From Rhodothermales bacterium (lineage in GTDB: Bacteria > Bacteroidota > Rhodothermia > Rhodothermales > Bin80), in contig OZ244061.1 in the NCBI GenBank assembly GCA_965215475.1, forward strand, positions 2,728,307-2,792,306: DNA of 64,000 nucleotides. The letters are read 5' to 3'. Made by a program: the position numbers and the translations under genes. A model generated the notes under the pieces. The model saw only the letters and a list, made by a program, of their open reading frames with translations, did no database searches and had not been told where the DNA came from. Below are positions 13,108-39,135 of the stretch, piece after piece (the first letter of the stretch is position 1; each line of letters starts with the position of its first letter).

Positions 13108-13596
13108 TTCCCCATTTGCCAAATGAATCTGAGTCTACGCGGGTCCACATAATGTGGCACAACTTATTGCGATTCTCTGTTCATTTCTCAACACTTGTCT
13201 CTTAGATTGGGTGAACCTACGAGAGTGGTTGGAAGGGCGTATTCCAACGTATTGGGCTATTTCGCTGGAAGTAGAACAGTCGGTTGTTTGAAGGCAAGGT
13301 CGGAAAATTGAGAGGATCAGAGAATTTGACAAAGAACCGAATCATTTCGCACAAATTGTGATCGAACTTGGATAAAAAGTGTGAAAGCATCGGCGGTGCA
13401 AGAAGTAATTGAGGTTGCAGAGAGGTTTGAACGTCACTTTGTAGGGGTGCGTGATGCACTTTGACATCTGCAATTCATCCCGACATTGAACCTTGTCAAT
13501 CCATGTGGATCATAGCCTATGGGGTTTTCGGATGAGAACGATCAATCCAGACCTCCAGTAGGGCTCCTTCCATCACTGATTCCAACTCTCCCAACC

Positions 13597-13630
13597 AAAA
13601 GCGCCCCGATACCAAGAGGTACCGGGGCGC
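13597..13630 (-). terminator. Rho-independent terminator of giant gene A
   Basis: On the minus strand: GCGCCCCGGTAC-ctcttg-GTATCGGGGCGC followed by TTTT. A 12-bp stem (one G-U pair) lies about 40 nt after the stop. Confidence 0.8.
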
Positions 13631-13669
13631 CTTGTTTCCCACGTGAGTAGCTACGCTACTCGATCTGCT

Positions 13670-16600: not shown

Positions 16601-19369
16601 ATCCTTATGATCTATCGCCACTTTCCGTACGCCCGTAAACCACTCGCTGTCAATCGTGTGCTCTTTCTCTACTACATACTTTAGAATATAACCGTGACCT
16701 TCGGTACGATTGGCTTCCTTATCCGGAACGTCCGTGCCAATGCTCCCCGGATCATTGGTGTCCAAACTCAGCGTGCCTTCCTTCACCGTAATCTGCTCCG
16801 TCACCATCAGCGTATTCTGCGTATCGGTTCCTGCAGCAAACAGAACCAGAGGGCCCTTGCAGAGTCCCAGGTTCTTGGTCTCGGTCACCTCATCCAGACG
16901 TAACTCTCCGCCATCCAGATAGATGGACAACGATTCAAGTGCCCCCTTCTCCGTGAGGCCTGTGACGATATCCGTGTTCCGGCTGGCATACACCAAGTGC
17001 TTCAGAGTAGACATGGATGACAATTCGCCATCCAATTCGCCATCAAGAAGTAGCGCGTCATTGACGGTGAGCGTTCCTCCATCGGCATCCAGATCGGATC
17101 CGCCACCAACATGAAGCGTCGTAACCGTCAGACTGCCATCTATCTCCAGATCTTCCAATGTGACCAACGTAGCAATCTCCAGACTATACGAACTTGGGAT
17201 CGTATGATCGCCTTCATCGGTCAGGATCAGGCGAGTCCCGGCACGTAGTGAAAGCGTGTTCGTGCACATTCCTTCATCCAGGGCCTCGGCAGCGACTTCC
17301 ATCTCAATCGGATTCCCCGATGCAAAAATGTCTCCGTCCAACTCCAGGTTGTGAACCGAAGTAGCTTTGGTCACAGCCGTCATATCGGCATCCAGAAGAA
17401 TTCTGTGATCATGATCTTCTTCTGCTTCAATATTCAAATCTCCTTCGATACGAGACGTGATCGTGGCGTCTTTGGCGCCCGCCTTCTTCGCCGCAAAAAT
17501 TACACGAGGAGCACAGCTTGTATCCTTGCGGTCCCGCGCGGCGAAATTATTATCACCCTCAGCATCGCGAGCATCTTGCTTAATGACAGAGGCGCGAATA
17601 TCCAAGTCTCCCTCAATCGTCACGGCATCCTGGAACTGCACACCTGGAATATAAAATCCAGGTCCTGCCGTTGCGGTGTTCTGATTCTTGAAGAACCGCA
17701 CATCCGACGGGTCGTCTACCAAGAGGTTCTCCTCCGACGCCGTGACGGTGATCTCGACGGAAGAGGGTGCTCCCTGACGCACCGTATTCGGCAACTTATC
17801 CAACGCCACCGTGAAGGTGCCCGCGGCTACTGTGGGTGATACCGTAAGGTCAACACTACTCGTCGTGCCACTACTAATCGGTATACTCGGACTAGCCGGC
17901 GTCACCGAGCTGACTAGGGTCCCGCTCACGACCAATGGAACCGTCACCGTAGTGTTATCTGGATGCGGTTTGCCGAGGGTCGCGGTCACCGTCACGGTTC
18001 CACCTGCACCCGCCACCAATGGGTTGGGGGTGGTGGTTGCAGTCAAACTCACCACAGGCGTATCCACGATGCGAACTTCGTCCATTGCAGTGCGATAGGT
18101 GCACGAAAACGGAACGTTGTCCGCCTCGCTGGCCAGCTTGACGCCCTGTCGGATCGAAATGACAACATCAGAATCGTCGTCCCGAGCTGTACCAAAACCG
18201 GATAGGCTAGTCGGAAGTGCTCCATCTTCCATAATCACATCTCCCGTAATCGTTGCAGTCTGTTCAAACACCACCCGGGCATCGTTCCACTGCACCACAT
18301 CGCCATCCACCTCGACCTCCTTCCGGAAAATGACGTCCGTTGTGACATCCTGATTTAGGGTGGCAATATCAGCGAGTTCAGCGATACTTCCTGCGACCGT
18401 TATATCGCCAATCTTTGTGAGGTCCACACAGATATTTCCTGCCGCAATCGCACGGATCTCATTCTCGATCTCCCCGCTACCTGAAATCCAGACACAATCC
18501 TCATGATTCGCCACATTTTTACTATCCGGCATGTAGTCACTGCTCGAATGGAAAATGCTTTGGTCGGCATTGTCTCCTGTGCCACCAACGAATTTATCAG
18601 CTCCTAGGTCAGCTCGGTCTGCTTCGGTATTTGCATGAGCAATCCAAACGGTTCCGGGCCCATCAATCGTGCCATTCACGGTTAGGATTCCCTTCCGATC
18701 ACCTGCTCCTGACTTCTTCAGAGGAACACGCAGATCAATCTCCGTTGCAGCGGTTGCGCCGCCTACCGTCAGGGTTGCTCCACTATTCACCGTCAACTCA
18801 TCCACGCGAAGCACCGGATTCGCTCCGGATCCTTCGATCGTCAGATCCTCCGCGACGGTAAGTGCTGGAATCGTAGCACTCACGGTCGTTAATGTCCCCG
18901 TAATCGATAACCTTCCTCCAGGGTGGGTGTCCTTATCAGTGGCCTTCAAAACCGAAATCGTTCCCGCTGTCTCTATAATGGTAACATCCTCGAATTGAAC
19001 CGTGGTTAAGGGGTGGACCACAAATCCTCCCCCACCAATTGTAAATTCGTCCGTGAATTCGATCGTTCCCTTTACCGGGTCTCCACTTCCTCGCACATAG
19101 GTGCCAAATTGTACGGTGGCCTCTAGGGTAGCAGGTGGGTCTAGCGTGACCGTACCACCTACCCTCCGAACCCGAACCAAGAGAGTGTCTCCACTAGCAG
19201 CTGTTATTCCCGCAGCCAATGTGCACGGGGTGCCATTACTACAGTCCGTGTTCGTTGTAATCGGATCTACATACGTATATGTAATCTGCGCAAATGCGCC
19301 GGAGGCGGCAAACAGCATGGCCAACAGTGCCACGCAGCCAACCCCGAAAAGTTTAGTAAAATGTTTCAT
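13670..19369 (-). CDS. Giant secreted protein A (1899 aa), T9SS C-terminal sorting domain
   Basis: Signal peptide MKHFTKLFGVGCVALLAMLFAASGAFAQ. The C-terminus NYPNPFNPSTRIQFDLPESARVSLQIVDMLGREV...GTYLYRM is a type A Por/T9SS CTD. Two DUF4397-like modules precede it (VQIIHNADLPAPVNVSLDG; ILVHGSGDAPAVNVNVLD). The N-terminal half has beta-helix-like repeats. Confidence 0.9.
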   Translation of the reverse strand: MKHFTKLFGVGCVALLAMLFAASGAFAQITYTYVDPITTNTDCSNGTPCTLAAGITAASGDTLLVRVRRVGGTVTLDPPATLEATVQFGTYVRGSGDPVKGTIEFTDEFTIGGGGFVVHPLTTVQFEDVTIIETAGTISVLKATDKDTHPGGRLSITGTLTTVSATIPALTVAEDLTIEGSGANPVLRVDELTVNSGATLTVGGATAATEIDLRVPLKKSGAGDRKGILTVNGTIDGPGTVWIAHANTEADRADLGADKFVGGTGDNADQSIFHSSSDYMPDSKNVANHEDCVWISGSGEIENEIRAIAAGNICVDLTKIGDITVAGSIAELADIATLNQDVTTDVIFRKEVEVDGDVVQWNDARVVFEQTATITGDVIMEDGALPTSLSGFGTARDDDSDVVISIRQGVKLASEADNVPFSCTYRTAMDEVRIVDTPVVSLTATTTPNPLVAGAGGTVTVTATLGKPHPDNTTVTVPLVVSGTLVSSVTPASPSIPISSGTTSSVDLTVSPTVAAGTFTVALDKLPNTVRQGAPSSVEITVTASEENLLVDDPSDVRFFKNQNTATAGPGFYIPGVQFQDAVTIEGDLDIRASVIKQDARDAEGDNNFAARDRKDTSCAPRVIFAAKKAGAKDATITSRIEGDLNIEAEEDHDHRILLDADMTAVTKATSVHNLELDGDIFASGNPIEMEVAAEALDEGMCTNTLSLRAGTRLILTDEGDHTIPSSYSLEIATLVTLEDLEIDGSLTVTTLHVGGGSDLDADGGTLTVNDALLLDGELDGELSSMSTLKHLVYASRNTDIVTGLTEKGALESLSIYLDGGELRLDEVTETKNLGLCKGPLVLFAAGTDTQNTLMVTEQITVKEGTLSLDTNDPGSIGTDVPDKEANRTEGHGYILKYVVEKEHTIDSEWFTGVRKVAIDHKDAVVIVDEKQSLIEGVHIFNGHLHLKGEGSHLTIGPSIAHDPSLMIDNGELHANGNNVVVHGKVDVGTADKQTGKITGKIMTGGGELHVLGQLNSSKGLDNATAVVTLGNGKSGASAGVGTIDVGEKGALQLGPETTNPVDGLFDDSQYPIEAEDMRREANSIGVARPHVKLDVKQGSAVNGLIRVPKGSKQTEIIGAKFDTIVFDGMKTPEKSTPPKPEPNSDGTLYVVGAGAAAVDSLNVSNGSVEFRGSRVTINKNVAVTSARLYQELNTLEFKKDLTISGTAGFSSGRTADAKRSLTIEGNFSKVITNATGAANMQDPTDAIYLSAHTNLTAKKGFKVSGPGAAARFSTQAGTQLKLEGDFDFGPTAKNYAIQADVEFSGKEAQKVRSLADFGGKVEINNANGIMLESNVAQGETSTLTLTRGIIHSDQYTWTLKNPNIEEDLRGRNNAVTNCDMGEKCGRVITGGTRRTHASAGVSRHVKDGISGGTAELSGGYLFPVGGTSGEEAHYRPLILQLEDDLSEAMPATVTPITVPDGTTPSWPADNIVTSGGALTLDVYADIFWKVEFKDELDVHPRVRIGAGGLVNVFDQAGIRMVQWDCKWGNAKLAGTSVTGNGDESFAENGYVNGVLNLTQETVEIGTCAILGVAANGIENPIHRAEITGGLAEVQIIHNADLPAPVNVSLDGAPLLSNVRFQTATGYTKLSAGSHEVQLQLVGAPAEQTTDVTLPSLGANKSYAVIAHGMLGNLAVNTIETRLKSSTSTMVEAILVHGSGDAPAVNVNVLDPSNSNQLDRVLTRQLAFNNTTRYLQLEPDFVNLQVTTADNTEVAVFQLDLAGRQGEALILNLSNQAASLEVYGVDVNGERVAHFNVTSVAEAEELPTEFTLHGNYPNPFNPSTRIQFDLPESARVSLQIVDMLGREVMTLPAQEFEAGANRSMELNAVSLASGTYLYRMIATGAESRFVKTGRMTLVK

Positions 19370-19461
19370 GTGTTTGGGCCTCTGCCCGTTGAGTTATGAA
19401 TTTAGATGCAATCCGGCACTGGGATGACAAGCCATAGTAGATAAACCTAATTCGACATAGG
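19370..19461 (-). promoter_or_regulatory. Conserved 92-bp upstream block (promoter/5' UTR) of giant gene A
   Basis: Identical to the reverse complement of 28055-28146. Homology stops abruptly at 19461/19462. Confidence 0.7.
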
Positions 19462-20036
19462 GAACTCTATTTTATCGGATCAGACCGTCGATCGAATCTC
19501 TCTATTCTCCTTCTGGGGCATGGTGAAGACAGCACCATAGAAGCCCTAGATGCAAGGGAGCGGTGGATGCACCTGAATCATTTTGAATGTTGAATACCGT
19601 AGTTGATTTCCTGATGAAGAGCTCCTTGCATGTGCATGTTTTGTCCACGACCGAATCCCTCGCGCCCATTCTTTGGCAGTAATTAAGATTATGACAATTC
19701 CTTGGGCGAATACGCTAGAGTACTGGGCGGTTGATGTGCTATAAGCAACCAAAACCAGACAAAAACAGCCAATCTACTTCGGTGTGGGTTTCACGAAATC
19801 CATGGAGGGATGCATCGCAGGGGGGAACTGCGGAATGGAACGAAGAACCTTAGGGGATGTGGAACAGGTGAGTATGGAGGAAAAAGCCCTGAAGCGAGGG
19901 TGTGTATGCAACGATCATCTATGATTTCACTGGTAGAACCGTTCTTAACGTAGGGGAAGAACGCACGAAAAAAGGCACCATCGCGCTTTTATAGCACCTT
20001 TTTGTGTACTCAGCGCGTTCTTTCATCTCATTTTAC

Positions 20037-20098
20037 ACATCCCACAGAGGTGGATCCCCTCTTAGTAGTGTTGAAGTTTCAATAATGGAACTTGGCTT
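20037..20098 (+). repeat. ~60-bp block homologous to the pre-ORF region of the group II intron (244-300)
   Basis: ATCCCACAGAGGTGGATCCCCTCTTAGTAGTG...TAATGGAA here matches ATCCCACAGGGGCGGATCCCCTCGTAGTAGTG...TAATGGAA at 244-300. GTGTG at 19792 lies about 250 bp upstream, similar to the arrangement at 13-17. This is a possible remnant of a second intron copy. Confidence 0.4.
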
Positions 20099-20201
20099 CC
20101 CCCTTAAATTGAGGGCATTTAGGGGCAACAGTATTGGATTTAGGAGGGAAGTCAAGTACGTATGATATAAAGACAGATGATTGCATGAATCTGCGGCATT
20201 C

Positions 20202-21965
20202 TCAGACAAAGTCTGATCTCCACAAATGTACAGCTCTCTCAGCAAGTCGCTGCTGTCGTTTATTAACTAGTTCTGGCGTCCATGTCTCAGGCGCAATTTC
20301 AGGGAGCTCCTTGGTAAGTTCGTAGGCACTGTTTTTGTACGCTTCACATTTTTCGTCATACGTTGTATTACTGATTTTTTTATTTGCTGATGACTCAAGA
20401 AGAGTCAGATTGCCGAGACGATACACTGAAGATTCCTGAATTTCGAGTGGAAAAGTTTCTTCCCATGCCTCTACTGGATTTTCGGGAAAAATATGCTCAA
20501 TTGTTCCAGGATCTGTCTCAAAATCACACGAACGCCCTCCAATATTTTGTTCAAGACGTGCTAGAATATATTTCGCCAACTTCCTCCTCAATCCGCGAGG
20601 GGGGATTACTAAGATTGAAAAATCTTGATACATTTTTTCGTCATCTACGTAAACTGGTTTGATTAGCTTGAACACGTCTGCTGGCGATGTTGCCTCTCGA
20701 TCTATAACTGCTCTTGCCGCATTGGGATAGACACGTTCAAGCACATTGGTATTAAGACGGCTGACTACGTTATAGCGAAATGATGTGACGCTTAAGAGTT
20801 TAAGGGTTCGTACAAAATCCTTTTTGGAAAAAACTTCCCAAGTGGCGAATATAAGCGGTAGCATCTGGCGAACTCGAAAAAGGCAAACTTCTCGTATATA
20901 TGGTTTTGCATTGGGTAAGTCCATCCAATAACCATGATTTGGATCCGAGAATGCCGCAAACAGTTCTGCCCTACCTTCCAGTTCATCGAGAAGTACAAAA
21001 ACATCCTCTTGTGACCTGGTTATGTCTCGTATTAGCTTGAAAAGGCGCTTGCTTCGTACCTTGCTCTGTCTACAGAGTAAATGATAGCGTAGAAATTCTG
21101 TAAACCGATCTTGACCTACAGTTGAAATCAATTTTGTCCACCGGCGCTGGAGAGCTTCCAGATCAGCAGGAACTTGTACCAAGGAGAACAGATAGTTCTT
21201 GAGTAAATCCGTTGTTGTAAGCTCAAGACCACGCGCGTTGAGAGTCTCAAATACCGTATACGCATTCAGTTCGTCATCTACTGTTATAAGGATAAACAGC
21301 AGTTGGCGTGCTACGCTTTCAGACAGAATACCAGCCACAATCTCTCCATCCGTTTTCAGATCTTCCGATTCATCAAGTCGTTCTCTAAAGTACAGAAAAC
21401 ATTTCCAGAGTAGGTTGTTCGATTTAGGGAGTCTCCTCGGATTAAGAGGTCTTCTCAACTGGACTAGATAGTCCTGATAGAAGCCGTTATCTGTATGATT
21501 TAATACGAGCCGAGTACTCTCGGTAAGTGATGCGGGGTCTTTTTCTCCAATGAAGCGATTACGCAACTGTTGCGCGCGTTCCTTATTTGAGTCAGGCTCA
21601 ACCCCTTCATTCGCCATCATGTACAATTTACTGATTATGGCAAGTGCAAACAGACTTAATGTGGCTAACCGCTGCTGCCCATCAATGACCAAGAATTCAC
21701 GGTCGCTTTTCCCCTGAATTACCAAAGATCCCATGAAGTGATGATCTTGATCACCAGATGTCAACCCGGCAATATCGTTCCATAGATCTTCCCACTCCTC
21801 TTCTGACCAAGAATAGTCGCGTTGATACGGTGGTACACTGTAGGATCTGCCGTTACCTATCAACTCCATATAGTTAATTGTGCGAGTGTTCAGGATATTT
21901 GTTTTTCCCATCTCAAGAAGCTGTTCGGTTATCTCGGTTTTTTGAATATAGGTTGGACTACACAA
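20202..21965 (-). CDS. DUF262/DUF1524 (GmrSD-like) nuclease, likely type IV restriction/defence
   Basis: Intact 587 aa ORF. N-terminal DUF262 motifs are PPYQRDYSW and VIDGQQRLATL. The C-terminal DUF1524 His-Me finger reads TIEHIFPENP...YRLGNLTLLE. An alternative start exists at 21911 (MGKTNIL). Confidence 0.85.
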   Translation of the reverse strand: MCSPTYIQKTEITEQLLEMGKTNILNTRTINYMELIGNGRSYSVPPYQRDYSWSEEEWEDLWNDIAGLTSGDQDHHFMGSLVIQGKSDREFLVIDGQQRLATLSLFALAIISKLYMMANEGVEPDSNKERAQQLRNRFIGEKDPASLTESTRLVLNHTDNGFYQDYLVQLRRPLNPRRLPKSNNLLWKCFLYFRERLDESEDLKTDGEIVAGILSESVARQLLFILITVDDELNAYTVFETLNARGLELTTTDLLKNYLFSLVQVPADLEALQRRWTKLISTVGQDRFTEFLRYHLLCRQSKVRSKRLFKLIRDITRSQEDVFVLLDELEGRAELFAAFSDPNHGYWMDLPNAKPYIREVCLFRVRQMLPLIFATWEVFSKKDFVRTLKLLSVTSFRYNVVSRLNTNVLERVYPNAARAVIDREATSPADVFKLIKPVYVDDEKMYQDFSILVIPPRGLRRKLAKYILARLEQNIGGRSCDFETDPGTIEHIFPENPVEAWEETFPLEIQESSVYRLGNLTLLESSANKKISNTTYDEKCEAYKNSAYELTKELPEIAPETWTPELVNKRQQRLAERAVHLWRSDFV

Positions 21966-22344
21966 ATCACTCCTTTACGAAATCTTATGCAAAAACAGCC
22001 CTAAATTGCTCCAAAAAATTCTCGGAGAATTTGCCCCTTAAAAGGTAGCAACGTCAATCTGAACCATGTGACAACTTCGGTTTGAGTGTACAAGCCTCGC
22101 GAAAAATATACCAAATTTCTGATTGGAATACATGCCTCAATTCATTTCGCGCGAACACTCCACCGATAAAACATCCTCTTCAAGCAGAAAACGATCTTGT
22201 AACCGCGTCCTTCCACATGCAGAAATCGTTCAAACCCCTTCTGGAAAGGAGATGATGTGGTGTTCAGTTTTTCAAAAATCCCAACCCATTACCTCTGTAT
22301 AAGAGGTAATCACCGAAGTTAGGGCCATAGCCCACGAGTCCGAA

Positions 22345-22880
22345 GATTCCTGCGACGGCCATGATCCAGGCCTTACTCGCACTCAAACTCTGGGGAATTG
22401 GGCGACCGTATCATGTCATGCCCCATATCCCGGATCGCGGCAGTGCGTTCTTTGCTGGGCTCAATGTCCTGCCAAAAAATCGACGTTGACGGAGTATAGC
22501 ACCCGGATGGATTCCGACCCTGGAGAGATCCTTTGATTTGGATTTTCATGCGATCCCCTATCATGGGGATGAGGTGTTCATGCAGAAGCATTCTATCTCC
22601 AAGCGGAGTCGTCAGCGTGGAATCTTGGCATTGGTGGCACGAGAGGCCAGTCAGCGGGTGTTGATCCATGGGGATGCGAAGATCACGAAAGCGACCCAGA
22701 ATGGTGCCATTTTATCCTTCACTGACCTCTGGAAACAACGGACGGGAGAAGTACCAAAGGAATTGGTCTTTGACCGCCGCTTTACGACCTATGCGCATCT
22801 GGCGAAACTCCATGAACGGGGAATCTTCTTCTTAACGTTGCGCAAGCTTGCCCCACTATAATCCAGCAGATCTTGGAGCA
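22345..22880 (+). mobile_element. IS4-superfamily DDE transposase fragment (3'-truncated, frameshifted)
   Basis: Contains LALKLWGIGRPYHVM..FFAGLNVLPK, KSTLTEYSTR and FDLDFHAIPYHGDE. About 97% identical in DNA (22515-22880) to 53795-54160. Confidence 0.7.
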
Positions 22881-22976
22881 ACCACCGAACAAAATTCACA
22901 AATGAGCATTTTCTGGATAGACACTCTGTAATAGATTCAGTCCGTCACAAAACATATATCGCAAAGTCCAAACACC

Positions 22977-25234
22977 ATGCGTATAGAGTGCATCGAAGTG
23001 AGTAACTTCAGAAGGTTGCTAGCTACACACGTAGACATTGCTGCTACAAAGACACTGTGAGTGGGGGCAAATAATAGCGGCAAGACCTCCGCTATGGTAG
23101 CCCTCCGCCTGTTTCTTAAAGAGAGAGGTGGGTTTTCAGTCAAAGATATTACCGCCTCCAACTGGCCGGAAATTGAACGCTTCGCAAATACTTGGGGCAC
23201 GGATGATGATTCTGGATCCCATGATCCAGAACGACTCAATCAGTTCCTACCTGCGATAGACGTCTGGATTTCGATTGCAGATAACGAACTTCGTCATGTA
23301 GCGCATTTGATACCAAGCCTGGACTGGGACGGTGATAACCTTGGCGTGCGTATACGCATAGAGGCAAAATCGTTTGAGGATCTTCGGAAGGACTTTGTTC
23401 AAGCACAGTTGAACGCCAAAGAGCGGGGCGAGAACTACAATTCAGAGAACAATGCATCTTCGGGGAACTTCTCGCTTTGGCCAAAATCCCTCCAAGATTA
23501 CTTGGATCGTAAATTCACTTCAGCACTGACCATGGAATCTTAAATCCTTGACCCAGACAAGGTTGTACAGCCCGAAACGAATCATACCGCTGAACCCCAA
23601 AAGCTTCCTGAACGGGCTCAATCACTTGGCAAAGATCCTTTTGCTGGGCTCATTCATCTTCGAGAAATCAGAGCGCAACGTGGATTCACGGATGCTTCCG
23701 AAAGCCGTCATCAAGACTCTCATGAAAGCACCGGCAAACGAAGCAGAACAAAAAATCAAAAACTATCTTCTCAACTCAGTACATACTATCACCGACATCT
23801 TTCCCCAGATCAGAATCCCACCAGCGAAGACGTTTCCGCATTGGAAGCAATCCATACTGCTCAATCCACTTTCGACGAGAAACTGGAAATTGGGTTTAAG
23901 TCTGCCATAAACGAGCTTTCGCAACTCGGTTATCCGGGTATGTCAAATCCGAAATTGTCAATCTCAACCAGAATCCGGCCCACTGATGGGCTCGATCATG
24001 CGTCTGCTGTGCAGTACGATATTGGCGGAGCAGGTGGGCTGTTCGTCTTCCAGAAGATTACAGTGGGCTTGGGTTTCAGAACCTTATTTCTATGGTATTT
24101 CAGCTTATGTGTTTTCGGGATGAGTGGATGCGTGTCGGGAAACTATCAAGTACTACGGTGACCGATACCAAACCTGTTATCGAGCCTCTCCAATTGATTC
24201 TTATTGAAGAACCAGAAGCGTATCTCCATGCCCAGGTGCAGCAAGTATTTATTCGCAAAGCATAGGATGTCTTGCGCAACCATCCTGATCTGGGTGAAAT
24301 AACGGATTTCCACTCCCAACTCATCGTTAGTACACACTCAAGTCACATCGTACACGAATTGGATTTTAAGAACTTACGCTATTTCAAGCGCCTACCTGCT
24401 ACAGAAACGAATGTGCCAACCTCAGTGGTCGCTAATCTGTCTGCCCTATTTGGAAAGGGTAACGAGACAACACGTTTCGTCCGGCGCTATCTCAAGACGA
24501 CCCATTGTGATCTATTCTTCGCCGATGCAATTATCTTGGTGGAAGGAGCGGCTGAAAGAATCCTCATTTCCCATTTTATTGAACACCACTCCCCTGACCT
24601 CGCCCACCGGTACGTCTCACTATTGGAGCTTGGCGGTAGTCATGCACATCGGTTGAAGCCACTCGTTGAGATACTTTCTATACCAACACTAATAATTACT
24701 GATCTTGATGCGGTTGATCCGAAAAATAACGGTAAGTCAGTACTTCCGCAACATGGCCAAGAATACGACACTGGCAATTCCGTCCTTAAATCGTGGTTGC
24801 CCAAGAAAACGAAGATTGATGAACTCCTAGACCAAGAAAATCTTGTGGCGGAAGAAGCCGGAGGTGGTTATGGAATAATTGGAGTGGTTTTTCAACGGAA
24901 ATTTCTAGTCACTTATCCAGAAGGATCGGAGCCAGTCTCACTGATTCCAAGTACATTTGAAGACGCACTGATATTAGCAAATTTGGATATAGTTAAGAAT
25001 CTTTCAGGTGTGACCATGACGAACGCATTTGCAGAAATTATACGGAAAGGTGCCAATGTTGGAGATATTGCGCAAGGACTCTATGATCGTCTTAGGAACT
25101 CACCTCAAAAAGCAGCATTCGCCCTCGATTTATTGGTAAGCGAAAACTTTGACCAATTAGTTCTACCGCCATACGTAAAAAAAGGTTTTTGTTGGCTTCA
25201 AGAACGGCTTGAGACATATGAGAATGTTGGGTGA
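22977..25234 (+). pseudogene. Class-2 OLD-family nuclease (ABC-type ATPase + Toprim), GajA-like, inactivated
   Basis: The N-terminus reads MRIECIEVSNFRRL..TL*VGANNSGKTS. ABC signature/Walker B region: LILIEEPEAYLHAQVQQVF. Toprim: ILVEGAAERIL and ITDLDAVDP. In-frame stops are TGA 23058-23060, TAA 23541-23543 and TAG 24263-24265, with a frameshift near 24030-24050. Confidence 0.85.
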
Positions 25235-27119
25235 TGACTGATACATCTTTCACAGAAGACGACACACGAGACAATACTGCGGATGAGACAATTAAAACCT
25301 GCTTATCACTGAAAAAACCGCATAGTTTTTTCCTCTATGCCGGAGCTGGTTCTGGAAAGACACGTTCACTGAAAGACGCGTTGCATTTTGTTTTGGAGAA
25401 ATATGGTGACGCTTTACGCCGTCAGGGTCGAAAGGTCGCTGTGATCACGTATACAAACGCTGCCTGCGATGAAATTCTCCGCCGTGTCAAACATGATCCT
25501 GTCTTTGATGTCGCTACAATTCATAGTTTCGCTTGGACACTACTTGAGGGGCGAACCCAAGATATTAGTCAGTGGCTGGCTAAGAGACTGCCAAAAGATA
25601 TCGAAAAAAATGTTGGCAAGCTTGGCCACGCGCGAATCAAAAAACACCAAGATATTCACCAGCACAAAATCGCTTCGCTCAAGGAGCGATTAAAGGGACT
25701 GGAAAGCATTATCCAGTTCACCTACAATCCGAACGGGGATAATTTTGGCAAGGATTCTCTCTCTCACAGTGAAGTCATTGACATATCTTCTGATTTCCTC
25801 ATCCATAAGCCGACGCTTCAGAAAATTGTGCTTAGCCGCTATCCCTTTTTGCTGATTGATGAGAGCCAAGACACGCTCAAACAGTTTATGGAGGCCATTC
25901 TAGAATTTGAAAAAGTACATAAAGGTCAGATCGTAATAGGTCTCTTTGGGGATACAATGCAACGTATCTATGGCCATGGCAAGAGCGACCTTATGGAATC
26001 TATCCCTGAGTACTGGAAAAAGCCTAAAAAATGCATGAATCATCGAAGCCGAGAACGTATCATCAGGTTAGCAAATGCGATTCGTAAGGACGCTGATGGC
26101 TGGTCACAGCGGGATCGAGCCAACAAATCAGGTGGCCACGTAGCTGCTTATATCGTTCCAGTTACCACCGCAGATAAGTCCGCTTTGGAAGGCCGAATTT
26201 GTAAAGACCTTGCTGAACGTACAAGCGATCCAGACTGGACTGACATGAAGGTCGTGAAAATGATAACCGTTGAACATCATATGGCAGCTGAAAGACTCGG
26301 GTTTAAGACTCTGTTTTCCGCGATTGATCCGGTTTCTACACTGAGGACAGGATTTCGTGATGGCTCTCTTGCAGCACTTCGTTTTTTCACTGAGCTAGTA
26401 TTGCCGCTCGTAAATGCACATCAAGAAGGAAGTCACTATGCCGTTATGTCTATTTTACGTAGCCAGTCGCCACTGCTTTCAAGAACACAACTACAATTGA
26501 AGAAAGATACAATCAAAACATCCATGGAGATCGTTCGAAGGGCTGTCTCAGTTCTCACGACACATTTTGAGAATAGTAATGATCCCCGATGTATCGATAT
26601 TCTCTCTATAGTAAAAACCTACAGGCTTTTCACTATCCCTGAGGATCTTCTTACGGCATTAGATTTGCGAAATAATGCATCCACGGAGGGTAGTTTTGAT
26701 GAAAAGATGATAAGATTGCTGCCTGGCAGAAATTGCTCGATGTTCAATTTTCGGAAATTTCACTATACAAAGACTATGTGAACGATCGTAGCCGATTTGG
26801 CACGCATCAAGGTGTGAAGGGTTTAGAGTATCCACGAGTCATGGTAATCACTGACGATTCCAGCATGCGCTTCAAAGGTTCGGTAGCTTATGATAAACTC
26901 TTTGGTGCGAAGCCTCCAAGTAAAACCGATATGGATAATGAAAGAGATGGAAGAGAGACCATGAATGATCGTACCCGGCGTTTGCTCTATGTTACTTGTA
27001 CACGGGCCAAAGAAAGCTTGGCATTGGTAATCTATAGTAACAATCCAAACCCGATAAAAGAGACTTTATTGGACAAGCAATGGTTCAAGGAGGACGAGAT
27101 TAATACATCAATCCATTAA
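25231..27119 (+). pseudogene. UvrD/PcrA/Rep-like helicase (GajB-like), one frameshift
   Basis: Walker A is YAGAGSGKT, motif II is FLLIDESQDT, and the C-terminus reads THQGVKGLEYPRVMVI...RRLLYVTCTRAKESL. The frame switches at about 26697-26710 next to GAAAAG. The start overlaps the OLD stop (ATGA). Confidence 0.8.
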
Positions 27120-28054
27120 CTGGGTTGAATAATCTAACGGATTTATATATGTGTACACCCATAGAAAACTGCAACATCTTCTTGAGTTCAGGTGAATTCT
27201 TCTCTCCGGGAGGAGGCAGATGTGCTTGTTATGCTGGTGCTATCAACGCCGGTAAATTGGCTACCATTCATGGCTGTACATTGCCGAAAACATCAACTTG
27301 CGCTGAGGAGAATCTTTTATGTTTGAGCAGGAGTTTGCAAGAGCCTCCCTATCTACGTCATCTGGAACAACGACCATGTAGTCGCGATGCAAAACCTGAA
27401 GACAACAAGTATTTGCTACGGCTTGTCGGAGCTGAGGAACAAGATTAGTCTGACGACATCTGGGATACACAATGCCTTGGACGAGAATCTTGAGCGTATA
27501 CTGAAGCGAGAGATATCAGAGGAAGTCCTTGAAGGGCTATTCAATGGCCAAGGGCATAAATTCAGGATGAAGAAAAAGCAGGCAAAGAAAAATCCGTTCA
27601 TTCTGCGTTCAATCATTGAGAACGCAAATGCCCAAGGACGACAAAGTCACACGCTCAAGCTACATCTTAAACAGGATCGTCCAAATCCGTCCCACATATG
27701 AAGAGTGAAGTCGGAAATTCAAACAATAGATTCACCAAGGTACGTTTTAAGTTTGAAGATCAAGTACCTCATATCGTGTGCGTTTCAATCGGATCAAACT
27801 GATCAAGTCACTGTTGAACGAAATCAAGTTACAGGATCCTACTTCACACAAGCCACTAGGATTTCGGAGGTAATGCTCCAATACGATATATATTATCGTC
27901 ACAACGAGGCAATATTGCAATAGCGATCTCCTATTGTTTCCTCCTGATATTGGAGAAATCTTCCAACCTTTTGAAAAAATACTTGTTAAAGTCTTGAATG
28001 GAATTACGCGTAGTCGTTAGTTATTGTGTAATTCCCGAAAGAGGTGCTGGGATA

Positions 28055-28146
28055 CCTATGTCGAATTAGGTTTATCTACTATGGCTTGTCATCCCAGTGC
28101 CGGATTGCATCTAAATTCATAACTCAACGGGCAGAGGCCCAAACAC
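28055..28146 (+). promoter_or_regulatory. Conserved 92-bp upstream block (promoter/5' UTR) of giant gene B
   Basis: Identical to the reverse complement of 19370-19461. It contains TAGGTTTA (28067-28074), a near match to the Bacteroidota -7 box TAnnTTTG. The promoter assignment is weak. Confidence 0.6.
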
Positions 28147-31100
28147 ATGAAACATTTTACTAAACTTTTCGGGGTTGGCTGCGTGGCACTGTTGGCCATG
28201 CTGTTTGCCGCCTCCGGCGCATTTGCGCAGACAACAAGATATGTGGATGTAAATAATGGAAGCGGTGCGGATTGTACCCTTACGGCACCGTGTCTGTTAG
28301 ACAACGCCATAGGCTCTGAAGGCACCGTCTTGATCCGGGTTCGCCGGGCAGGGAGCACCGTTACGCTTGCTCCCCCTGCGTCTTCCCTAACAGCGAATAT
28401 AACGTTTGGGGCTTATGTGCGGGGCAGTGGAAGCGCGGTCAAGGGGACGTTGGAATTTGAAGACGAATTTACAATTGGTGCTGGGACATTTACAATCCAC
28501 AAAGATGCGACGGTTCAATTTGAGGATGTGAAATTGTCTGATGATGCAACAAGGACTTCTGGAGCAATAGCGTTTGCTGATTCTCCTGCTGACGACAAAA
28601 ATCATCCAGCAAGCAGGCTGTCGATTACGGGGACCTTGACGGTCGTGGGGTCGTCAAACTACCTCGACGCACTCGAGGTGGCGAACGATCTAACGATTGA
28701 GGGTGAGAGCACGAGTCCAAGATTGAGAGTGAATCAGCTAACGGTCAAGCGTGGTGCCACGCTGACGGTAGGCGGCTCCACTGCTGCCGCGGAGATTGAT
28801 CTACACGTTGCTCTGAAAAAATCAGCAAAGGATAGTAAGAATGGAATCCTGACGGTAGATGGCACAATTGACGGGCCGGGAACGGTTTGGTTTACCCCGG
28901 AAGCTCGAACTTCAAGCTTCTTTCATCTGAGTAGTGATTATCAACCCGATGCCAGGAATGTGATAGATCATGATGATTGTGTTCTGGTGACCGGAGGCGG
29001 GGAGATCGAAAATGAGATCCGCGCGATCGCGGCAGGGAATATCTGTATCAATCTGACAAAGATTGGGGATTTGACGGTGGCAGGAAGTATTGCAGCTGAC
29101 GCCACCGATAATCCGGACGTCACGACGGATGTCATTTTCCGGAACGAGGTCGAGATTGATGGGGATGTGGTGCAGTGGAACGATGCCCGGGTGGTGTTTG
29201 AGAAGGATGCCACGGTCACGGGGGATGTGATTTTGGCAGATGGAGTGTTGCCGACCGGCGTATTTCCAAGCAGTTTTCCAGTCGATCAGAGTACAGCTCG
29301 GGTGGATGATGGAGGTGTTGCGACTTCAATCCGCAGGGGCGTCAAGCTGGCCAGCGCGGCGGAAAACGATCCGTTTACGTGTGAGTACCTCAATGACATG
29401 GCAGCGGTGCGCATCGTGGATACGCCTGTGGTGAGTTTGAGCGCCACTCCCACCTCACAGGTTGTGGGTGGAACCGTGACGGTGACCGCGACCCTCAATA
29501 AAGCGCATCCAGATGGCACTGATGTAACGGTTCCATTGGTCGTGAACCCAGCCAACGCGGTGACGCCGGCTAATCCGAGTATAACGATTGCTGGTGTCGC
29601 CACGACGGGTAGTGTTCCCCTTACGGTATCAAACACACCGGGCACCTTCACGGTGGCGTTGGGTGAGGTGATGAATGCGCGTCCAGGCACCACCGCCACG
29701 TCCGTCTCGATCACCGTCACGCCGACGGGGAAGAACCTCTTGGTAGACGACCCGTCGGATGCGCGGTTCTTCAAGAATCAGGACACCGCAACGGCAGGAC
29801 CGGGATTTTATATTCCGGGAGTCCTCTTCCAGGGCGAGGTGACGATTGAGGGGGATCTGGATATTCGCTCCGATGACATTGCTGGAATAGATTCCGCGCC
29901 GAACCGCAAGGATACAAGCTGTGCTCCTCGTGTGATTTTCGCGGCAGAGAAGGTAGGCAAGGCGAACTCGGCCATCATGTCGCGGATTGAAGGAGATTTG
30001 AACATTGAAGCCACGCACAATGACCGCATCCTTCTGGATGCCCATATGGATGGCGCAATTATTTCGGCGCACAACTTGGCATTGGACGGAGAGATTTTTG
30101 CGGAGGAGGGGGCACCGATTGAAATGGAAAATCCCGCGGAGACGCTGGATGAGGGGGAGTGCAAGAATACGCTTGCGTTAAATGGCGGGACACGCCTGAT
30201 TTTGACCGAGGAAGGAAACGGCCGGGAGATTTCGGGGGATCTGATGATTCATGCGTTGGTCACCTTGGAAGACCTAGAGATTACGGGAGATGTGACGGTT
30301 ACGACGCTTCATGTGGGGAGCGGATCTGACCTTGAGGTGGATGAAACGCTCACCGTCAAAGACGCGCTGATCCTTGAGGGCGAATTGGATGGTGCATTGC
30401 ATTCCAACTCCGAGTTGAAGCACTTGGTGTATGCCAGCCGGAACACGGATATCGTCACAGGCCTCACGGAGAAGGGGGCACTTGAATCGTTGTCCATCTA
30501 TCTGGATGGCGGAGAGTTACGTCTGGATGAGGTGACCGAGACCAAGAACCTGGGACTCTGCAAGGGCCCTCTGGTTCTGTTTGCTGCAGGAACCGATACG
30601 CAGAATACGCTGATGGTGACGGAGCAGATTACGGTGAAGGAGGGTACGCTGAGTTTGGACACCAATGATCCGGGGAGCATTGGCACGGACGTTCCGGATA
30701 AGGAAGCCGATCGTACCGGAAATCACGGTTATATTCTAAAGTATGTAGTAGAGAAAGAGCACACGATTGACAGCGAGTGGTTTACGGGCGTACGGAAAGT
30801 GGCGATAGATCATAAGGATGCGGTCGTGATCGTGGACGAGAAGCAATCTCTGATCGAGGGGGTCCACATCTTTAATGGACATCTACACCTGAAAGGAGAG
30901 GGATCTCATCTGACGATTGGGCCCTCGAGTAAACATGCTCCGTTCTTGATGATTGACAACGGAGAGCTACATGCCAACGGAAATAACGTGGTGGTGCATG
31001 GCAAGGTGGATGTGGGCAAGGCAGACAAGCAAACGGGCAAGATCATGACGGGTGGGGGCGAGCTCCATGTGCTGGGGCAGCTCAACAGTAGCAAGGGTTT

Positions 31101-33750
31101 GGACAACGCCACTGCGGTCGTCACCTTGGGGAATGGGAAGAGTGGAGCGACTGCTGGAGTCGGGACGATTGATGTGGGCGAGGGTGCTCTCCAGCTAGGC
31201 CCCGAAACGACGAATCCGTTGGATGAGTTGGGCAATGATTGGCAGTATCCGATTCCGAACGCGAATGCACGGCGGCCTCATGTGAAATTAGACGTGAAAC
31301 AAGGCAGCGCGGTCAATGGACTCATTCGGGTGCCGAAAGGAAGTAAGCAGACGGAGATCATCGGCGCGAAATTTGACACCATCGTGTTTGATGGAATGAA
31401 GACGCCAAATAAACCAGGGACGGTGGATCCCAGCAAATTAAACTGGGACGGGACCTTGTATGTGATGGGTATCGGAGCCGCGGGGAAAGAAGCGATCACA
31501 GTGGATTCCCTGAACGCATCGAATGGGGCGGTTGAGTTCTGGGGGTCCAAGGCCACGATCACCAAAAATGTGGACGTTACCTCTGCGAACCTCTTCCAGC
31601 AGTTGAATACGTTGGAATTCAAAAAGGATCTCACGATCAGCGGGACGGCAGGATTCTCTTCCAGAGAGGGGGATGCAGACGCCAAAAAATCGCTGACCAT
31701 TGAGGGAAACTTTTCGAAGGTCATTACAAGTGCGACGGGAGCTGCTAATGAGGATCAAGAGAGAGGGATTTCGAATACTCCTACGGATGCAATCTATTTG
31801 AGTGAGTATACGAACTTGACCGCCAAGAAGGACTTCAAGGTCTCTGGTCCAGGAGCGGCCACTCGGTTCTTGACGCAGAACGGAACGCAGCTTAAGTTGG
31901 AGGGAGACTTTGACTTTGGTCCGACCGCAGAAGGTTATGCGATCGAGGCCGATGTGGAGTTTTCAGGAAAAGAAGCGCAGAAGGTGCGTTCCCTGGCAGA
32001 CTTCGGGGGGAAGGTAGAGATCAACAATGCCAACGGGATCATGCTGGAGAGTAATGTCGCGCAAGGGGAAACGAGTACGTTGACGCTGACCCGAGGAATC
32101 ATCCACAGCGATCAGTATACCTGGACGTTGAAGAACCCGAACATTGAAGAGGATCTCCGTGGGCGCAACAATGCCGTGACCAACTGTGATACGGATGAGA
32201 ATTGTGACAAAGTGATCACAGGAGGCACGCGTCGCACGCATGCCTCGGCGGGGGTTTCTCGTCATGTGAAGGATGGGATTTCTGGGGGGACGGCGGAATT
32301 GAGCGGTGGGTACCTGTTCCCGGTGGGGGGTACTAGTGGAGAGGAGGCGCATTATCGTCCGCTGATTCTGCAACTGGAGGATGATTTATCGGAAGCGATG
32401 CCGGCGACGGTGACGCCGATTACGGTTCCCGACGGGGCAACACCATCCTGGCCTGCCGACAATATCGTCACCTCAGGAGGGGCGTTAACGCTGGATGTAT
32501 ATGCGGACATCTTCTGGAAAGTGGAGTTCAAAGACGAGTTGGATGTGCATCCTCGTGTTCGGATTGGAGCGGGCGGACTGGTGAACGTATTTGATCAGGC
32601 GGGAATCCGCATGGTGCAGTGGGATTGTGAATGGGATAATCCGAAATTGGCGGGAACCTCCGTCACCGGAAATGGCGACGAATCGTTTGCGGAAAACGGA
32701 TATGTGAATGGCGTTCTGAATTTGACGCAGGAGACGGTGGAGATTGGCACATGTGCGATTTTGGGCGTGGCAGCGAATGGGATTGAGAACCCCATTCACC
32801 GCGCGGAAATTACGGGGGGCTTGGCGGAGGTTCAGATCATTCATAACGCAAACTTACCTGCACCGGTGAATGTATCTCTGGATGGGGCGCCGCTTCTTTC
32901 TGGCGTGCGGTTCCAGACTGCGACGGGCTATACGAAGCTTAGCGCAGGATCCCATGAGGTGCAGCTCCAGTTAGTGGGTGCTCCGGCAGAGCAGACCACG
33001 GATGTGACCCTGCCTTCGTTGGGGGCAAACAAGAGCTATGCGGTCATCGCGCACGGCATGTTGGGCAACCTTGCGGTGAACACGATTGAAACCCGCCTGA
33101 AATCCAGTACGAGCACGATGGTGGAGGCGATCTTGGTTCATGGCTCGGGCGATGCGCCGGCGGTGAACGTGAATGTGTTGGATCCATCCAACAGTAACCA
33201 GTTGGATCGGGTATTGACGCGGCAGCTTGCGTTCAACAATACGACGCGGTATTTGCAGTTGGAGCCGGACTTTGTGAACTTGCAGGTCACCACGGCGGAC
33301 AACACGGAGGTTGCGGTCTTCCAGTTGGATCTGGCGGGGCGTCAGGGCGAGGCTTTGATCTTGAACCTGTCCAATCAGGCGGCAAGCTTGGAGGTCTACG
33401 GAGTGGATGTGAATGGGGAGCGTGTGGCGCACTTCAATGTGACGAGTGTTGCCGAAGCGGAGGAGCTTCCGACGGAGTTCACCTTGCATGGGAACTATCC
33501 GAACCCGTTCAATCCTTCGACGCGGATCCAGTTTGATCTACCGGAGTCGGCTCGTGTGAGTCTTCAGATTGTGGACATGTTGGGTCGTGAAGTGATGACG
33601 CTGCCGGCGCAGGAGTTTGAGGCGGGGGCGAACCGGAGCATGGAGCTGAATGCGGTGAGTCTTGCCTCGGGGACCTACCTGTACCGGATGATTGCGACAG
33701 GAGCGGAGAGCAGGTTTGTGAAGTCGGGTCGTATGACGCTGGTGAAGTAA
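28147..33750 (+). CDS. Giant secreted protein B (1867 aa), T9SS C-terminal sorting domain, paralog of A
   Basis: Same signal peptide and T9SS CTD as A. Residues 29 to about 755 are only ~60-70% identical to A. From LKHLVYASRNTD onward the two are near-identical, except for a variable patch at about 31165-31960. Confidence 0.9.
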   Translation: MKHFTKLFGVGCVALLAMLFAASGAFAQTTRYVDVNNGSGADCTLTAPCLLDNAIGSEGTVLIRVRRAGSTVTLAPPASSLTANITFGAYVRGSGSAVKGTLEFEDEFTIGAGTFTIHKDATVQFEDVKLSDDATRTSGAIAFADSPADDKNHPASRLSITGTLTVVGSSNYLDALEVANDLTIEGESTSPRLRVNQLTVKRGATLTVGGSTAAAEIDLHVALKKSAKDSKNGILTVDGTIDGPGTVWFTPEARTSSFFHLSSDYQPDARNVIDHDDCVLVTGGGEIENEIRAIAAGNICINLTKIGDLTVAGSIAADATDNPDVTTDVIFRNEVEIDGDVVQWNDARVVFEKDATVTGDVILADGVLPTGVFPSSFPVDQSTARVDDGGVATSIRRGVKLASAAENDPFTCEYLNDMAAVRIVDTPVVSLSATPTSQVVGGTVTVTATLNKAHPDGTDVTVPLVVNPANAVTPANPSITIAGVATTGSVPLTVSNTPGTFTVALGEVMNARPGTTATSVSITVTPTGKNLLVDDPSDARFFKNQDTATAGPGFYIPGVLFQGEVTIEGDLDIRSDDIAGIDSAPNRKDTSCAPRVIFAAEKVGKANSAIMSRIEGDLNIEATHNDRILLDAHMDGAIISAHNLALDGEIFAEEGAPIEMENPAETLDEGECKNTLALNGGTRLILTEEGNGREISGDLMIHALVTLEDLEITGDVTVTTLHVGSGSDLEVDETLTVKDALILEGELDGALHSNSELKHLVYASRNTDIVTGLTEKGALESLSIYLDGGELRLDEVTETKNLGLCKGPLVLFAAGTDTQNTLMVTEQITVKEGTLSLDTNDPGSIGTDVPDKEADRTGNHGYILKYVVEKEHTIDSEWFTGVRKVAIDHKDAVVIVDEKQSLIEGVHIFNGHLHLKGEGSHLTIGPSSKHAPFLMIDNGELHANGNNVVVHGKVDVGKADKQTGKIMTGGGELHVLGQLNSSKGLDNATAVVTLGNGKSGATAGVGTIDVGEGALQLGPETTNPLDELGNDWQYPIPNANARRPHVKLDVKQGSAVNGLIRVPKGSKQTEIIGAKFDTIVFDGMKTPNKPGTVDPSKLNWDGTLYVMGIGAAGKEAITVDSLNASNGAVEFWGSKATITKNVDVTSANLFQQLNTLEFKKDLTISGTAGFSSREGDADAKKSLTIEGNFSKVITSATGAANEDQERGISNTPTDAIYLSEYTNLTAKKDFKVSGPGAATRFLTQNGTQLKLEGDFDFGPTAEGYAIEADVEFSGKEAQKVRSLADFGGKVEINNANGIMLESNVAQGETSTLTLTRGIIHSDQYTWTLKNPNIEEDLRGRNNAVTNCDTDENCDKVITGGTRRTHASAGVSRHVKDGISGGTAELSGGYLFPVGGTSGEEAHYRPLILQLEDDLSEAMPATVTPITVPDGATPSWPADNIVTSGGALTLDVYADIFWKVEFKDELDVHPRVRIGAGGLVNVFDQAGIRMVQWDCEWDNPKLAGTSVTGNGDESFAENGYVNGVLNLTQETVEIGTCAILGVAANGIENPIHRAEITGGLAEVQIIHNANLPAPVNVSLDGAPLLSGVRFQTATGYTKLSAGSHEVQLQLVGAPAEQTTDVTLPSLGANKSYAVIAHGMLGNLAVNTIETRLKSSTSTMVEAILVHGSGDAPAVNVNVLDPSNSNQLDRVLTRQLAFNNTTRYLQLEPDFVNLQVTTADNTEVAVFQLDLAGRQGEALILNLSNQAASLEVYGVDVNGERVAHFNVTSVAEAEELPTEFTLHGNYPNPFNPSTRIQFDLPESARVSLQIVDMLGREVMTLPAQEFEAGANRSMELNAVSLASGTYLYRMIATGAESRFVKSGRMTLVK

Positions 33751-33789
33751 AGCAGATCGAGTAGCGTAGCTACTCACGCAGGAAACAAG

Positions 33790-33823
33790 GCGCCCCGGTA
33801 CTTCTTGGTATCGGGGCGCTTTT
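33790..33823 (+). terminator. Rho-independent terminator of giant gene B
   Basis: GCGCCCCGGTAC-ttcttg-GTATCGGGGCGC followed by TTTT. It is a homologue of the terminator at 13597-13630, with one difference in the loop. Confidence 0.8.
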
Positions 33824-33898
33824 GCGTTGGGAAAAAAGTTCGGGAGGGAGGTAACCCCATTATATTTTCACATGATCACATAAAAAACGAAGTAAAAA

Positions 33899-36816: not shown

Positions 36817-37074
36817 ATGTTACTTGACTATCCCAAGTTCGACATTTTTGCTTGCGCTCAAGATACGAAAACCTCTCGTTTCCGTATTTGACTGATGTTT
36901 TTCTTGATCCGTACTCTTGTGAGAGTTTACGATTTGATGGGGCGTGGCCGTGTACCCTGTTTTGCGCCTGATTCCGCACAATTTCCCCGTAATTTCTTCA
37001 CATCCATCCCCATCGGATGTACCTCGGGCTCCTGAGTCCGTTCTTTCCCTCTTTATGAATCCACGCGCTTCATG

Positions 37075-38700: not shown

Positions 38701-38719
38701 TTGTCCCAGATTCAAAAGG

Positions 38720-39080
38720 GTGGTCTGTCTGGAGAGGGGACGATTGATGTGGGAGATGATGCACTCCAGCTAGGCCCCGAAACGATGAATCCGGTCAATG
38801 GGTTGACCCAAGATTGGCGATATCCAATTGTCCCCGTCCCTCCAGAAGACGAACCAGATGCCCCAAATAATCTAGATGCACGGCTTCACGTGAAACTGGA
38901 AGTCATCGGGAACAACAGTGCCGTTGTGGGTACGATTCGTGTGCCGAAGGGAAGCAAGGAAACCGAGATCATCGGTGCAGACTTTGATACCATCGTTTTT
39001 GATGGGACAAAGACGCCAAAGAAATCAGGGGATGACAACTGGGACGGGACCTTGTATGTGGTTAGTGTTGTAGATAGCAT
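38720..39080 (+). pseudogene. Fragment of a third giant-protein paralog (covers the internal variable patch)
   Basis: GTIDVGDDALQLGPETMNPVNGLTQDWRYPIV...LHVKLEV...IRVPKGSKETEIIGADFDTIVFDGTKTPKK...NWDGTLYVV aligns with B 31165-31470 and A about 15900-16240. DNA identity to B is ~75-80% by eye. Confidence 0.8.
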
Positions 39081-39135
39081 AAACGCAAGTTTGCAATTTA
39101 TAGTGGATTTTTTCATGAGTTTCGGTGGTTCCCAT

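Follow-up and report, generated by a model that had tools for sequence, protein, structure and literature searches.

How two copies of one gene in the same genome come to be almost identical over part of their length and deeply divergent over the rest is the question raised by a pair of giant genes in an uncultured Rhodothermales bacterium. The pair lies in a 64,000-nucleotide stretch of DNA (GenBank assembly GCA_965215475.1, contig OZ244061.1, positions 2,728,307 to 2,792,306 of the forward strand), which is called the window here and is numbered from its first letter. The two genes, A and B, are arranged as an inverted, head-to-head pair with 8.8 kb between them, and the positions of their parts and of neighbouring features are collected in Table 1. 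Their products are, as judged from sequence, giant cargo proteins of the type IX secretion system (T9SS). An initial annotation, made from the letters of the window alone, described a mosaic of identity between the two genes and attributed it to segmental gene conversion with retained N-terminal diversity. We hold with high confidence that the mosaic is real and that gene conversion is the right mechanism. It is also very probable that the locus as a whole represents an inverted pair of T9SS paralogs that evolves in concert by repeated non-reciprocal conversion.

A MAFFT nucleotide alignment that included the flanks places the start of the homology between A and B 92 nt 5' of the ATG and its end about 75 nt 3' of the stop codon. 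The homology opens with a perfect tract of 177 nt, which bears out the earlier statement that the 5' untranslated region and codons 1-28 are identical. The following 2.2 kb shows 24-92% identity per 100-nt window, mostly 57-78%, with many indels; the initial annotation had placed this divergence, indels included, at residues 29 to about 755. A perfect run then opens at B 30416 and A 17004, exactly at LKHLVYASRNTD, the very point at which a switch to near-identity had been proposed. Identity beyond this point is about 99%, and the exceptions are one patch, for which the present mapping gives B 31151-31945 and A 16257-15475, and four small substitution clusters. Near-identity continues past the stop codon and through the terminator hairpin to B 33824 and A 13596. 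Both edges of the divergent N-terminal segment are sharp and adjoin perfect tracts, of 177 and 226 nt. The alignment windows show a mosaic and not a uniform profile, and all coordinates in the initial annotation were right within a few bases.

A maximum chi-squared test located an A/B breakpoint at B 30416 with a chi2 of 565, where the highest of 1000 permutations reached 30.5, and a second breakpoint falls at B 31946. The longest identical run between the two genes is 540 nt (permutation maximum 113), and the 26 differences that follow the patch are clustered, with a variance/mean of 2.75 where permutation reached at most 1.80. Nei-Gojobori synonymous divergence (dS) between A and B is 1.12, 0.40 and 0.70 in the N-terminal residues 29-250, 251-560 and 561-755, and 0.038, 0.022 and 0.023 in the 3' residues 756-1000, 1271-1560 and 1561-1867, a 20-50-fold contrast between the N-terminal segment and the 3' blocks. 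In the patch, dS is 0.13 and the ratio of nonsynonymous to synonymous divergence (dN/dS) is about 1.

The history of the locus becomes clearer in comparison with a sister genome, a 3.709-Mb circular contig (ENA ERZ25072448), in which the positional orthologs A2 (L002, 10001-15547) and B2 (L001, 10001-15532) are likewise head-to-head and have the same flanks. In a four-way alignment, 193 sites within the genes have A equal to B and A2 equal to B2 while the genomes differ, compared with about one site that joins A with A2 and B with B2; sites of this orthologous pattern are confined to the flanks. Paralogs are more alike within a genome than positional orthologs are between genomes, while the flanks track orthology. 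The trees of the C-terminal segments are ((A,B),(A2,B2)), with bootstrap values of 100% for (A,B) and 98-100% for (A2,B2), whereas that of the N-terminal segment is (A,(B,(A2,B2))), supported at 100%; A alone differs at 571 sites, and B lies near both sister copies. A grouping of paralogs by genome, combined with conflicting segment trees, is what concerted evolution by gene conversion classically leaves behind, and the 193 sites against about one and the conflict between well-supported trees lend strong support to the segmental conversion first proposed. The sister pair shows the reciprocal of the window pattern: A2 and B2 are 100% identical from position -92 to about +4650, including a whole N-terminus of B-type, and differ solely in the last ~900 nt, where dS is 0.16.

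The two genomes are otherwise near-clonal. The genes for VirB4, the integrase and TrbL have a between-strain dS of 0.000-0.012, and the strains are at least 99.7% identical outside a variable island that contains the pair and 5-10% divergent within it; in the comparison of the window with L002, identity drops from 99% or more left of ~13.1 kb to 92-94% from ~13.3 kb into gene A. Because flanking genes have a dS of at most 0.012 and segments of the giant genes one of 0.05-0.73, the giant-gene locus is a recombination hot spot. Between strains, dN/dS is about 1.1-1.2 in the B-type N-terminus, which is consistent with relaxed or diversifying evolution, 0.6-0.7 in the two segments between residues 1000 and 1561, and 0.12-0.24 in residues 756-1000 and 1561-1867.

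The process that would produce this pattern is homologous recombination between the copies, which we infer to be conversion of the RecA type and which would repeatedly write tracts of one copy into the other so that the two evolve in concert. In the window genome, the last homogenisation would have covered the 177-nt leader and signal peptide together with the 3' 3.4 kb through the terminator, and the 2.2-kb N-terminal segment and the ~800-nt patch would have been left unconverted or re-diversified afterwards. The identical 5' and 3' tracts may serve as homology anchors, between which a sufficiently long tract could replace the whole divergent N-terminal module at once, as appears to have happened in the sister strain. 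New diversity would enter through divergent segments imported from other alleles or paralogs and through local nonsynonymous change in exposed loops.

The A-type N-terminus is a deep lineage. Over residues 29-250, A and B share 58% amino acid identity, a value comparable to the 51-62% seen with homologs from closer related species, the most distant homologs having 35-39%. Residues 29-790 of A have a best match of only 59% in a database of 5.8 billion proteins. The divergent N-terminal segment of A is 60-62% identical to B-type copies and, with 100% bootstrap, groups with them within the lineage of this species. The paired copies found in two related species (P0006/P0007 and P0004/P0008) are mosaics as well: their divergence is likewise greatest towards the N-terminus, and other parts contain 100%-identical tracts, as over residues ~964-1250 of the same-contig pair P0006/P0007, which argues that genomes with two types are common. 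Since the sister strain has the B-type in both copies, the difference is nevertheless dispensable. The initial claim that two different N-termini are maintained is thus borne out in part: a difference is present in the window pair and in the pairs of two related species and absent from the sister strain. Selective retention of both types is plausible, and divergence may itself preserve the difference by suppressing recombination.

Several explanations of the mosaic have to be weighed against or alongside concerted evolution by conversion. It is possible, and tentatively entertained, that selection actively maintains two N-terminal modules per genome by functional diversification or balancing selection, with the remainder of the genes made uniform by conversion: the N-terminal split between A and B is deep, with dS up to 1.1, paired copies in related species differ most in the same region, and both open reading frames (ORFs) are intact behind an identical leader. 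The sister copies, identical at every base of their shared B-type N-terminus, indicate that loss of one type is tolerated; moreover, divergence above 30% is by itself enough to suppress homologous recombination and would keep the difference without selection, and the divergence extends to the folded core instead of being limited to loops. One history that fits the data has two old types, of which the A-type disappeared from the sister strain when a single long conversion tract, with its anchors in the identical 5' and 3' tracts, overwrote it. Another that fits begins with full homogenisation of the copies, after which A took up a ~2.2-kb divergent segment from another, unsampled strain by way of the same anchors, an import that we likewise regard as possible and entertain tentatively. 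Sharp boundaries beside perfect tracts and the many A-only sites set against a B close to A2 and B2 are what it would leave behind; the contrast between the island and its near-clonal surroundings itself requires imports, and some segments have a high between-strain dS (0.25 at residues 756-1000). No donor was found among the 5.8 billion proteins, however, and the bootstrap-supported clustering of A-type with B-type means that any donor must be an unsampled close relative.

Programmed variation, whether of the cassette type or by recombinase-driven inversion between the 177-nt inverted repeats that would swap promoters or modules, is improbable. In its favour, a partial third copy, F, coincides exactly with the variable patch and has variants in common with the sister alleles; the pair is linked to a conserved tyrosine recombinase in the window, the sister and one related species; copy 1 differs in orientation among species; and the leader is part of the perfect inverted 5' tracts. 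Yet F is a single relic in insertion sequence (IS) debris, both genes are complete with the same leader, which leaves no silent copy, and the spacer has the same orientation in both strains. In related species the 5' tract reaches only 8-33 nt upstream at ~85-87% identity (87% in the 33-nt case) and is neither perfect nor as long, and a scan for sigma-70-type promoters gave nothing beyond the shuffle expectation; no promoter was assigned. Cassette-type antigenic variation in Neisseria pilE/pilS, Borrelia vlsE and Anaplasma msp2 relies on one expression site and many promoterless partial donors. The present locus resembles these systems in having a partial copy and variable segments flanked by conserved homology that guides segmental conversion, but their architecture was rejected for a locus of two complete genes with identical leaders and one ~350-nt degraded relic. 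That the 3' identity stems from strong purifying selection or very recent duplication without conversion is highly unlikely. The C-terminal domains are indeed the most conserved part of the family, but synonymous divergence is also nearly nil in the 3' blocks (dS 0.02, compared with 0.4-1.1); furthermore, both genomes have both copies with the same boundaries, so the duplication predates the split of the haplotypes, yet the paralogs group by genome. A diversity-generating retroelement as the source of the small substitution clusters is hardly credible: although nonsynonymous differences are tightly clustered in otherwise identical sequence, tblastn found no reverse transcriptase in the window, no template-repeat copy of the variable clusters occurs there, and the substitutions are not adenine-specific.

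Some points also weigh against concerted evolution by conversion as the full account. Two genomes represent the species, too few to fix in which direction and how often conversion took place. The grouping of A with B and of A2 with B2 could be due in part to one strain having exchanged its entire locus for a divergent haplotype, a course of events that would still need conversion within each haplotype. The near-identical tracts are known from assembly alone, in which cross-polishing of repeats is conceivable; for A2, an independent sample (L003) that matches it at every base over 5.9 kb argues against an artefact. Finally, no recent conversion tracts were found among six dispersed family copies on contig OZ241874.1, the chromosome of a more distantly related Rhodothermales bacterium, a result which means that conversion is not universal in the family.

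The patch has a history of its own. At the family level (B residues ~1001-1270) it comes in two ancient types whose distribution does not follow the species tree, one formed by A, B, A2, B2, P0004 and P0010 and the other by P0005-P0009 and P0011, each at 100% bootstrap, and P0004 and P0008, from one genome, differ in patch type. Among the small clusters, the initial annotation had singled out CDMGEKCGRV in A against CDTDENCDKV in B, and this difference was found as described. The motif, CDxxExCxxV, occurs in three versions in three distinct alleles, both sister copies being identical there, and is a local hot spot of nonsynonymous change; in the AlphaFold2 model it falls in a loop with a predicted local distance difference test score (pLDDT) below 50. 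The relic F, embedded in a spurious 289-aa ORF downstream of B, has at least five variants in common with the sister-strain alleles against A and B, which indicates earlier exchange with additional copies.

Homologs of A and B number 38 matches in the protein database, all from metagenome-assembled genomes (MAGs) of uncultured Rhodothermales or Rhodothermaceae, and the genome matches to the family are likewise all Rhodothermales. The names of co-deposited MAG records suggest that the host organisms are sponge-associated. One related-species locus (L084, 2260-15655) has the order TrbC, copy (-), integrase, copy (+), with the recombinase between the 5' ends of an inverted pair; another (L085, 3274-15637) has a ~6.7-kb tandem duplication beside TrbC without recombinase; and the closest N-terminal types, P0008 and P0006, hold opposite positions in L084 and L085. 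Such varied arrangement of the pair among related species shows repeated rearrangement. Contig OZ241874.1 (L006, L008, L009, L012, L013, L015) carries at least six dispersed members with 76-80% nucleotide identity, and only their C-terminal domain region is more similar, at 83-92%. GC content at third codon positions (GC3) is 0.53-0.65 in the giant genes overall, above their low-GC3 neighbours; within them it is 0.64 in the converted 3' part and 0.53-0.57 in the N-terminal part, against a background mean of 0.45 for window genes. In every family member examined, including L005-L009, L015, L084 and L085, the C-terminal 60% exceeds the N-terminal 40% in GC3 by about 0.10. GC-biased gene conversion was rejected as an explanation to be read from this offset, which also occurs in members without recent conversion and is hence not diagnostic.

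The encoded proteins are probably displayed on the cell surface. Both begin with what reads in the sequence as a typical Sec signal peptide, MKHFTKLFGVGCVALLAMLFAASGAFA followed by Q, with a basic n-region, a hydrophobic core and an AFA-Q site, and both score above the cut-offs for the T9SS sorting domain models (TIGR04183, 32.6 and 32.8 bits, cut-off 23; PF18962, 32.4 and 32.5 bits, cut-off 27). No genes for T9SS components were identified among the ORFs scanned in the window. AlphaFold2 models built from family alignments are all-beta, with a mean pLDDT of 73 for residues 1-800 and 78 for residues 751-1867. In residues 1-800, Foldseek gave no PDB match at E <= 0.001, and a Calx-beta/Ig-like domain at residues ~428-525 alone matched weakly. 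In fold, the DUF4397 region is similar to the Ig-like extracellular domain of PepT1/2 with its two lobes (E = 6e-6), and residues 751-1867 have a faint likeness to S-layer and biofilm proteins; Pfam and structure searches of A and B detected no enzymatic domain. These results change part of the first description of the pair, in which conversion was said to affect the secretion and anchor parts. The converted part consists of ~1,100 residues of folded beta domains, of which the sorting domain makes up only the last ~75-90 residues, and the word passenger used for the N-terminal halves belongs to type V secretion and not to T9SS cargo. The idea that variable segments are surface loops survived only in small part: block identity did not follow pLDDT (rho 0.17, p = 0.16), and the tendency of indels toward low-confidence blocks is weak (rho -0.24, p = 0.04).

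Segmental exchange between paralogs has precedents. The Salmonella tufA/tufB genes are an inverted pair that is kept near-identical over its whole length by RecA-dependent conversion under purifying selection. A and B are like them an inverted pair under concerted evolution, and unlike them show segmental homogenisation alongside hypervariable modules. The babA/babB/babC genes of Helicobacter pylori have near-identical ends and a divergent functional region, form chimeras by intragenomic recombination and vary in genotype between strains (PMC4552749). Conserved ends, a divergent region and intragenomic gene conversion are found in A and B as well; however, bab proteins are ~75-kDa Hop-family outer-membrane proteins from dispersed loci with phase-variable CT repeats, whereas A and B are ~200-kDa T9SS cargo from an adjacent inverted pair in which no slipped-strand repeats were seen and the identical 5' part is limited to the leader and signal peptide. 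In Porphyromonas gingivalis, rgpA, kgp and hagA have C-terminal adhesin regions with sequence identical within and between genes and N-terminal functional domains that differ, and their diversity arises by domain rearrangement and allelic exchange (PMC5266723). These are also T9SS-secreted surface proteins that share identical sequence on the C-terminal side, but the gingipains have protease domains and repeated cleaved-adhesin modules, whereas no enzyme domain and no cleaved-adhesin (CAD) or DUF2436 domain was detected in A and B, and phylum and genomic arrangement differ.

That surface-protein paralogs evolve in concert is already textbook knowledge, and the mechanism is not new. The locus is of value as an unusually clean natural case, in which two near-clonal complete genomes show reciprocal conversion patterns at one place, and as the source of a protein family, uncharacterised until now, of ~1,900-residue T9SS cargo largely without structural relatives from uncultured Rhodothermales MAGs. 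As the main point of divergence between near-identical strains, the locus is useful as a strain marker, and its protein is probably under diversifying pressure exerted by a host, by phage or by grazers. The case also carries a warning that whole-gene similarity cannot give the orthology or phylogeny of genes of this type. These points should be useful in the study of symbiont surface proteins of this family, and their general interest is modest. A bolder and rather unlikely proposal is that the locus is a strain-level variation device for the outermost surface protein of a symbiont, with the N-terminal module and the patch as cassettes between perfect anchors. If this were true, modules would come from a pool shared by the population and in part between species, to which the two ancient patch types across species and the relic third copy would point; the island would be the sole place at which strains with such similar flanks (dS at most 0.012) differ by 5-10%; the driver would be host or phage recognition; and the neighbouring tyrosine recombinase might help to reorient copies. 

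Table 1. Positions of the giant gene pair, its segments and neighbouring features in the window (aa, amino acids; basis of the assignment in brackets).
Feature	Position	Strand	Remarks
Paralog A	13670..19369	-	1899 aa; signal peptide, all-beta N-terminal part, Calx-beta-like and DUF4397 domains, type-A sorting domain of the T9SS (ORF and translation, Pfam/NCBIfam)
Paralog B	28147..33750	+	1867 aa, architecture as A (ORF, Pfam/NCBIfam, AlphaFold2 models)
Perfect 177-nt 5' tract, B arm	28055..28231	+	92-nt leader and codons 1-28 (signal peptide); putative 5' homology anchor
Perfect 177-nt 5' tract, A arm	19285..19461	-
Divergent N-terminal segment of B	28232..30415	+	residues 29-756; 58-69% aa identity to A; B-type, as in both sister copies
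Divergent N-terminal segment of A	17005..19284	-	source of most of the 571 A-only sites
Converted block 1 in B	30416..31150	+	pairs with A 16258-17004; ~97-100% identical; dS 0.038
Divergent patch in B	31151..31945	+	pairs with A 15475-16257; indels
Converted block 2 in B	31946..33824	+	pairs with A 13596-15474; through stop codon and terminator hairpin; dS ~0.022
Converted block 2 in A	13596..15474	-
Hypervariable Cys-Cys loop	32192..32229	+	CDTDENCDKV in B, CDMGEKCGRV in A, CKDDEKCARV in sister copies
Second small nonsynonymous cluster	32629..32643	+	CEWDNPK in B, CKWGNAK in A
DUF4397 domain of B	32824..33171	+	residues 1560-1675
T9SS type-A C-terminal sorting domain of B	33496..33720	+	residues 1784-1858
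Relic fragment F of third paralog	38725..39075	+	~350 nt, patch region only; downstream of B in IS debris
Tyrosine recombinase	10398..11426	+	linked to pair in window, sister and one related species; absent in second
Spacer between A and B	19462..28054	.	defence island
GmrSD	20202-21965		in spacer
AAA fragment of split Gabija-like GajA	23061-23543		in spacer
OLD-TOPRIM, Gabija-like	24272-25234		in spacer
UvrD-like helicase, Gabija-like	25231-26781		in spacer
Broken IS256-like pieces	39229-40069		in IS graveyard
DDE transposase fragment	40703-41398		in IS graveyard
Intact Mutator-family (IS256-like) transposase	42491-43738		in IS graveyard

The variable island that contains the pair measures ~45 kb. 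On the side of A lie genes of a conjugative type IV secretion system (TrbL, VirB4/TrbE, TrbC) and the tyrosine recombinase, and on the side of B IS remnants followed by housekeeping genes. The position of the recombinase relative to copy 1 varies among genomes, the integrases of the window and the related species are orthologous at 76% amino acid identity, and nothing that ties the recombinase to conversion was found in the window, the sister or the related species. The sister spacer has a GmrSD, which is 92.5% identical to that of the window (BLAST), together with an AAA_13 protein and IS4 and ISAZ013 transposases in a rearranged gene order. Rfam and tRNA scans of the window gave no matches.

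Four further observations concern the surroundings of the pair. The region at 36800-44000 is an IS graveyard that is not present in the matching sister flank. A 374-nt direct repeat occurs at 22510-22879 and 53792-54165, 31 kb apart and with ~96% identity, the first copy within the defence island, the second flanked by uvrB and a gene for an epimerase; a small ORF that overlaps the repeat had no Pfam match. Just downstream of A, three overlapping copies of a ~59-nt repeat (12888-13021) lie in a 118-aa ORF (12751-13107) that has a weak BrxL_N-like match. Two AAA_16/STAND-like ATPase genes at 1923-3152 (-) and 35596-36816 (+), whose products are 58% identical in amino acids, form a second inverted pair. 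Its mirror symmetry with the giant genes hints at an inverted duplication that was older and of greater extent.

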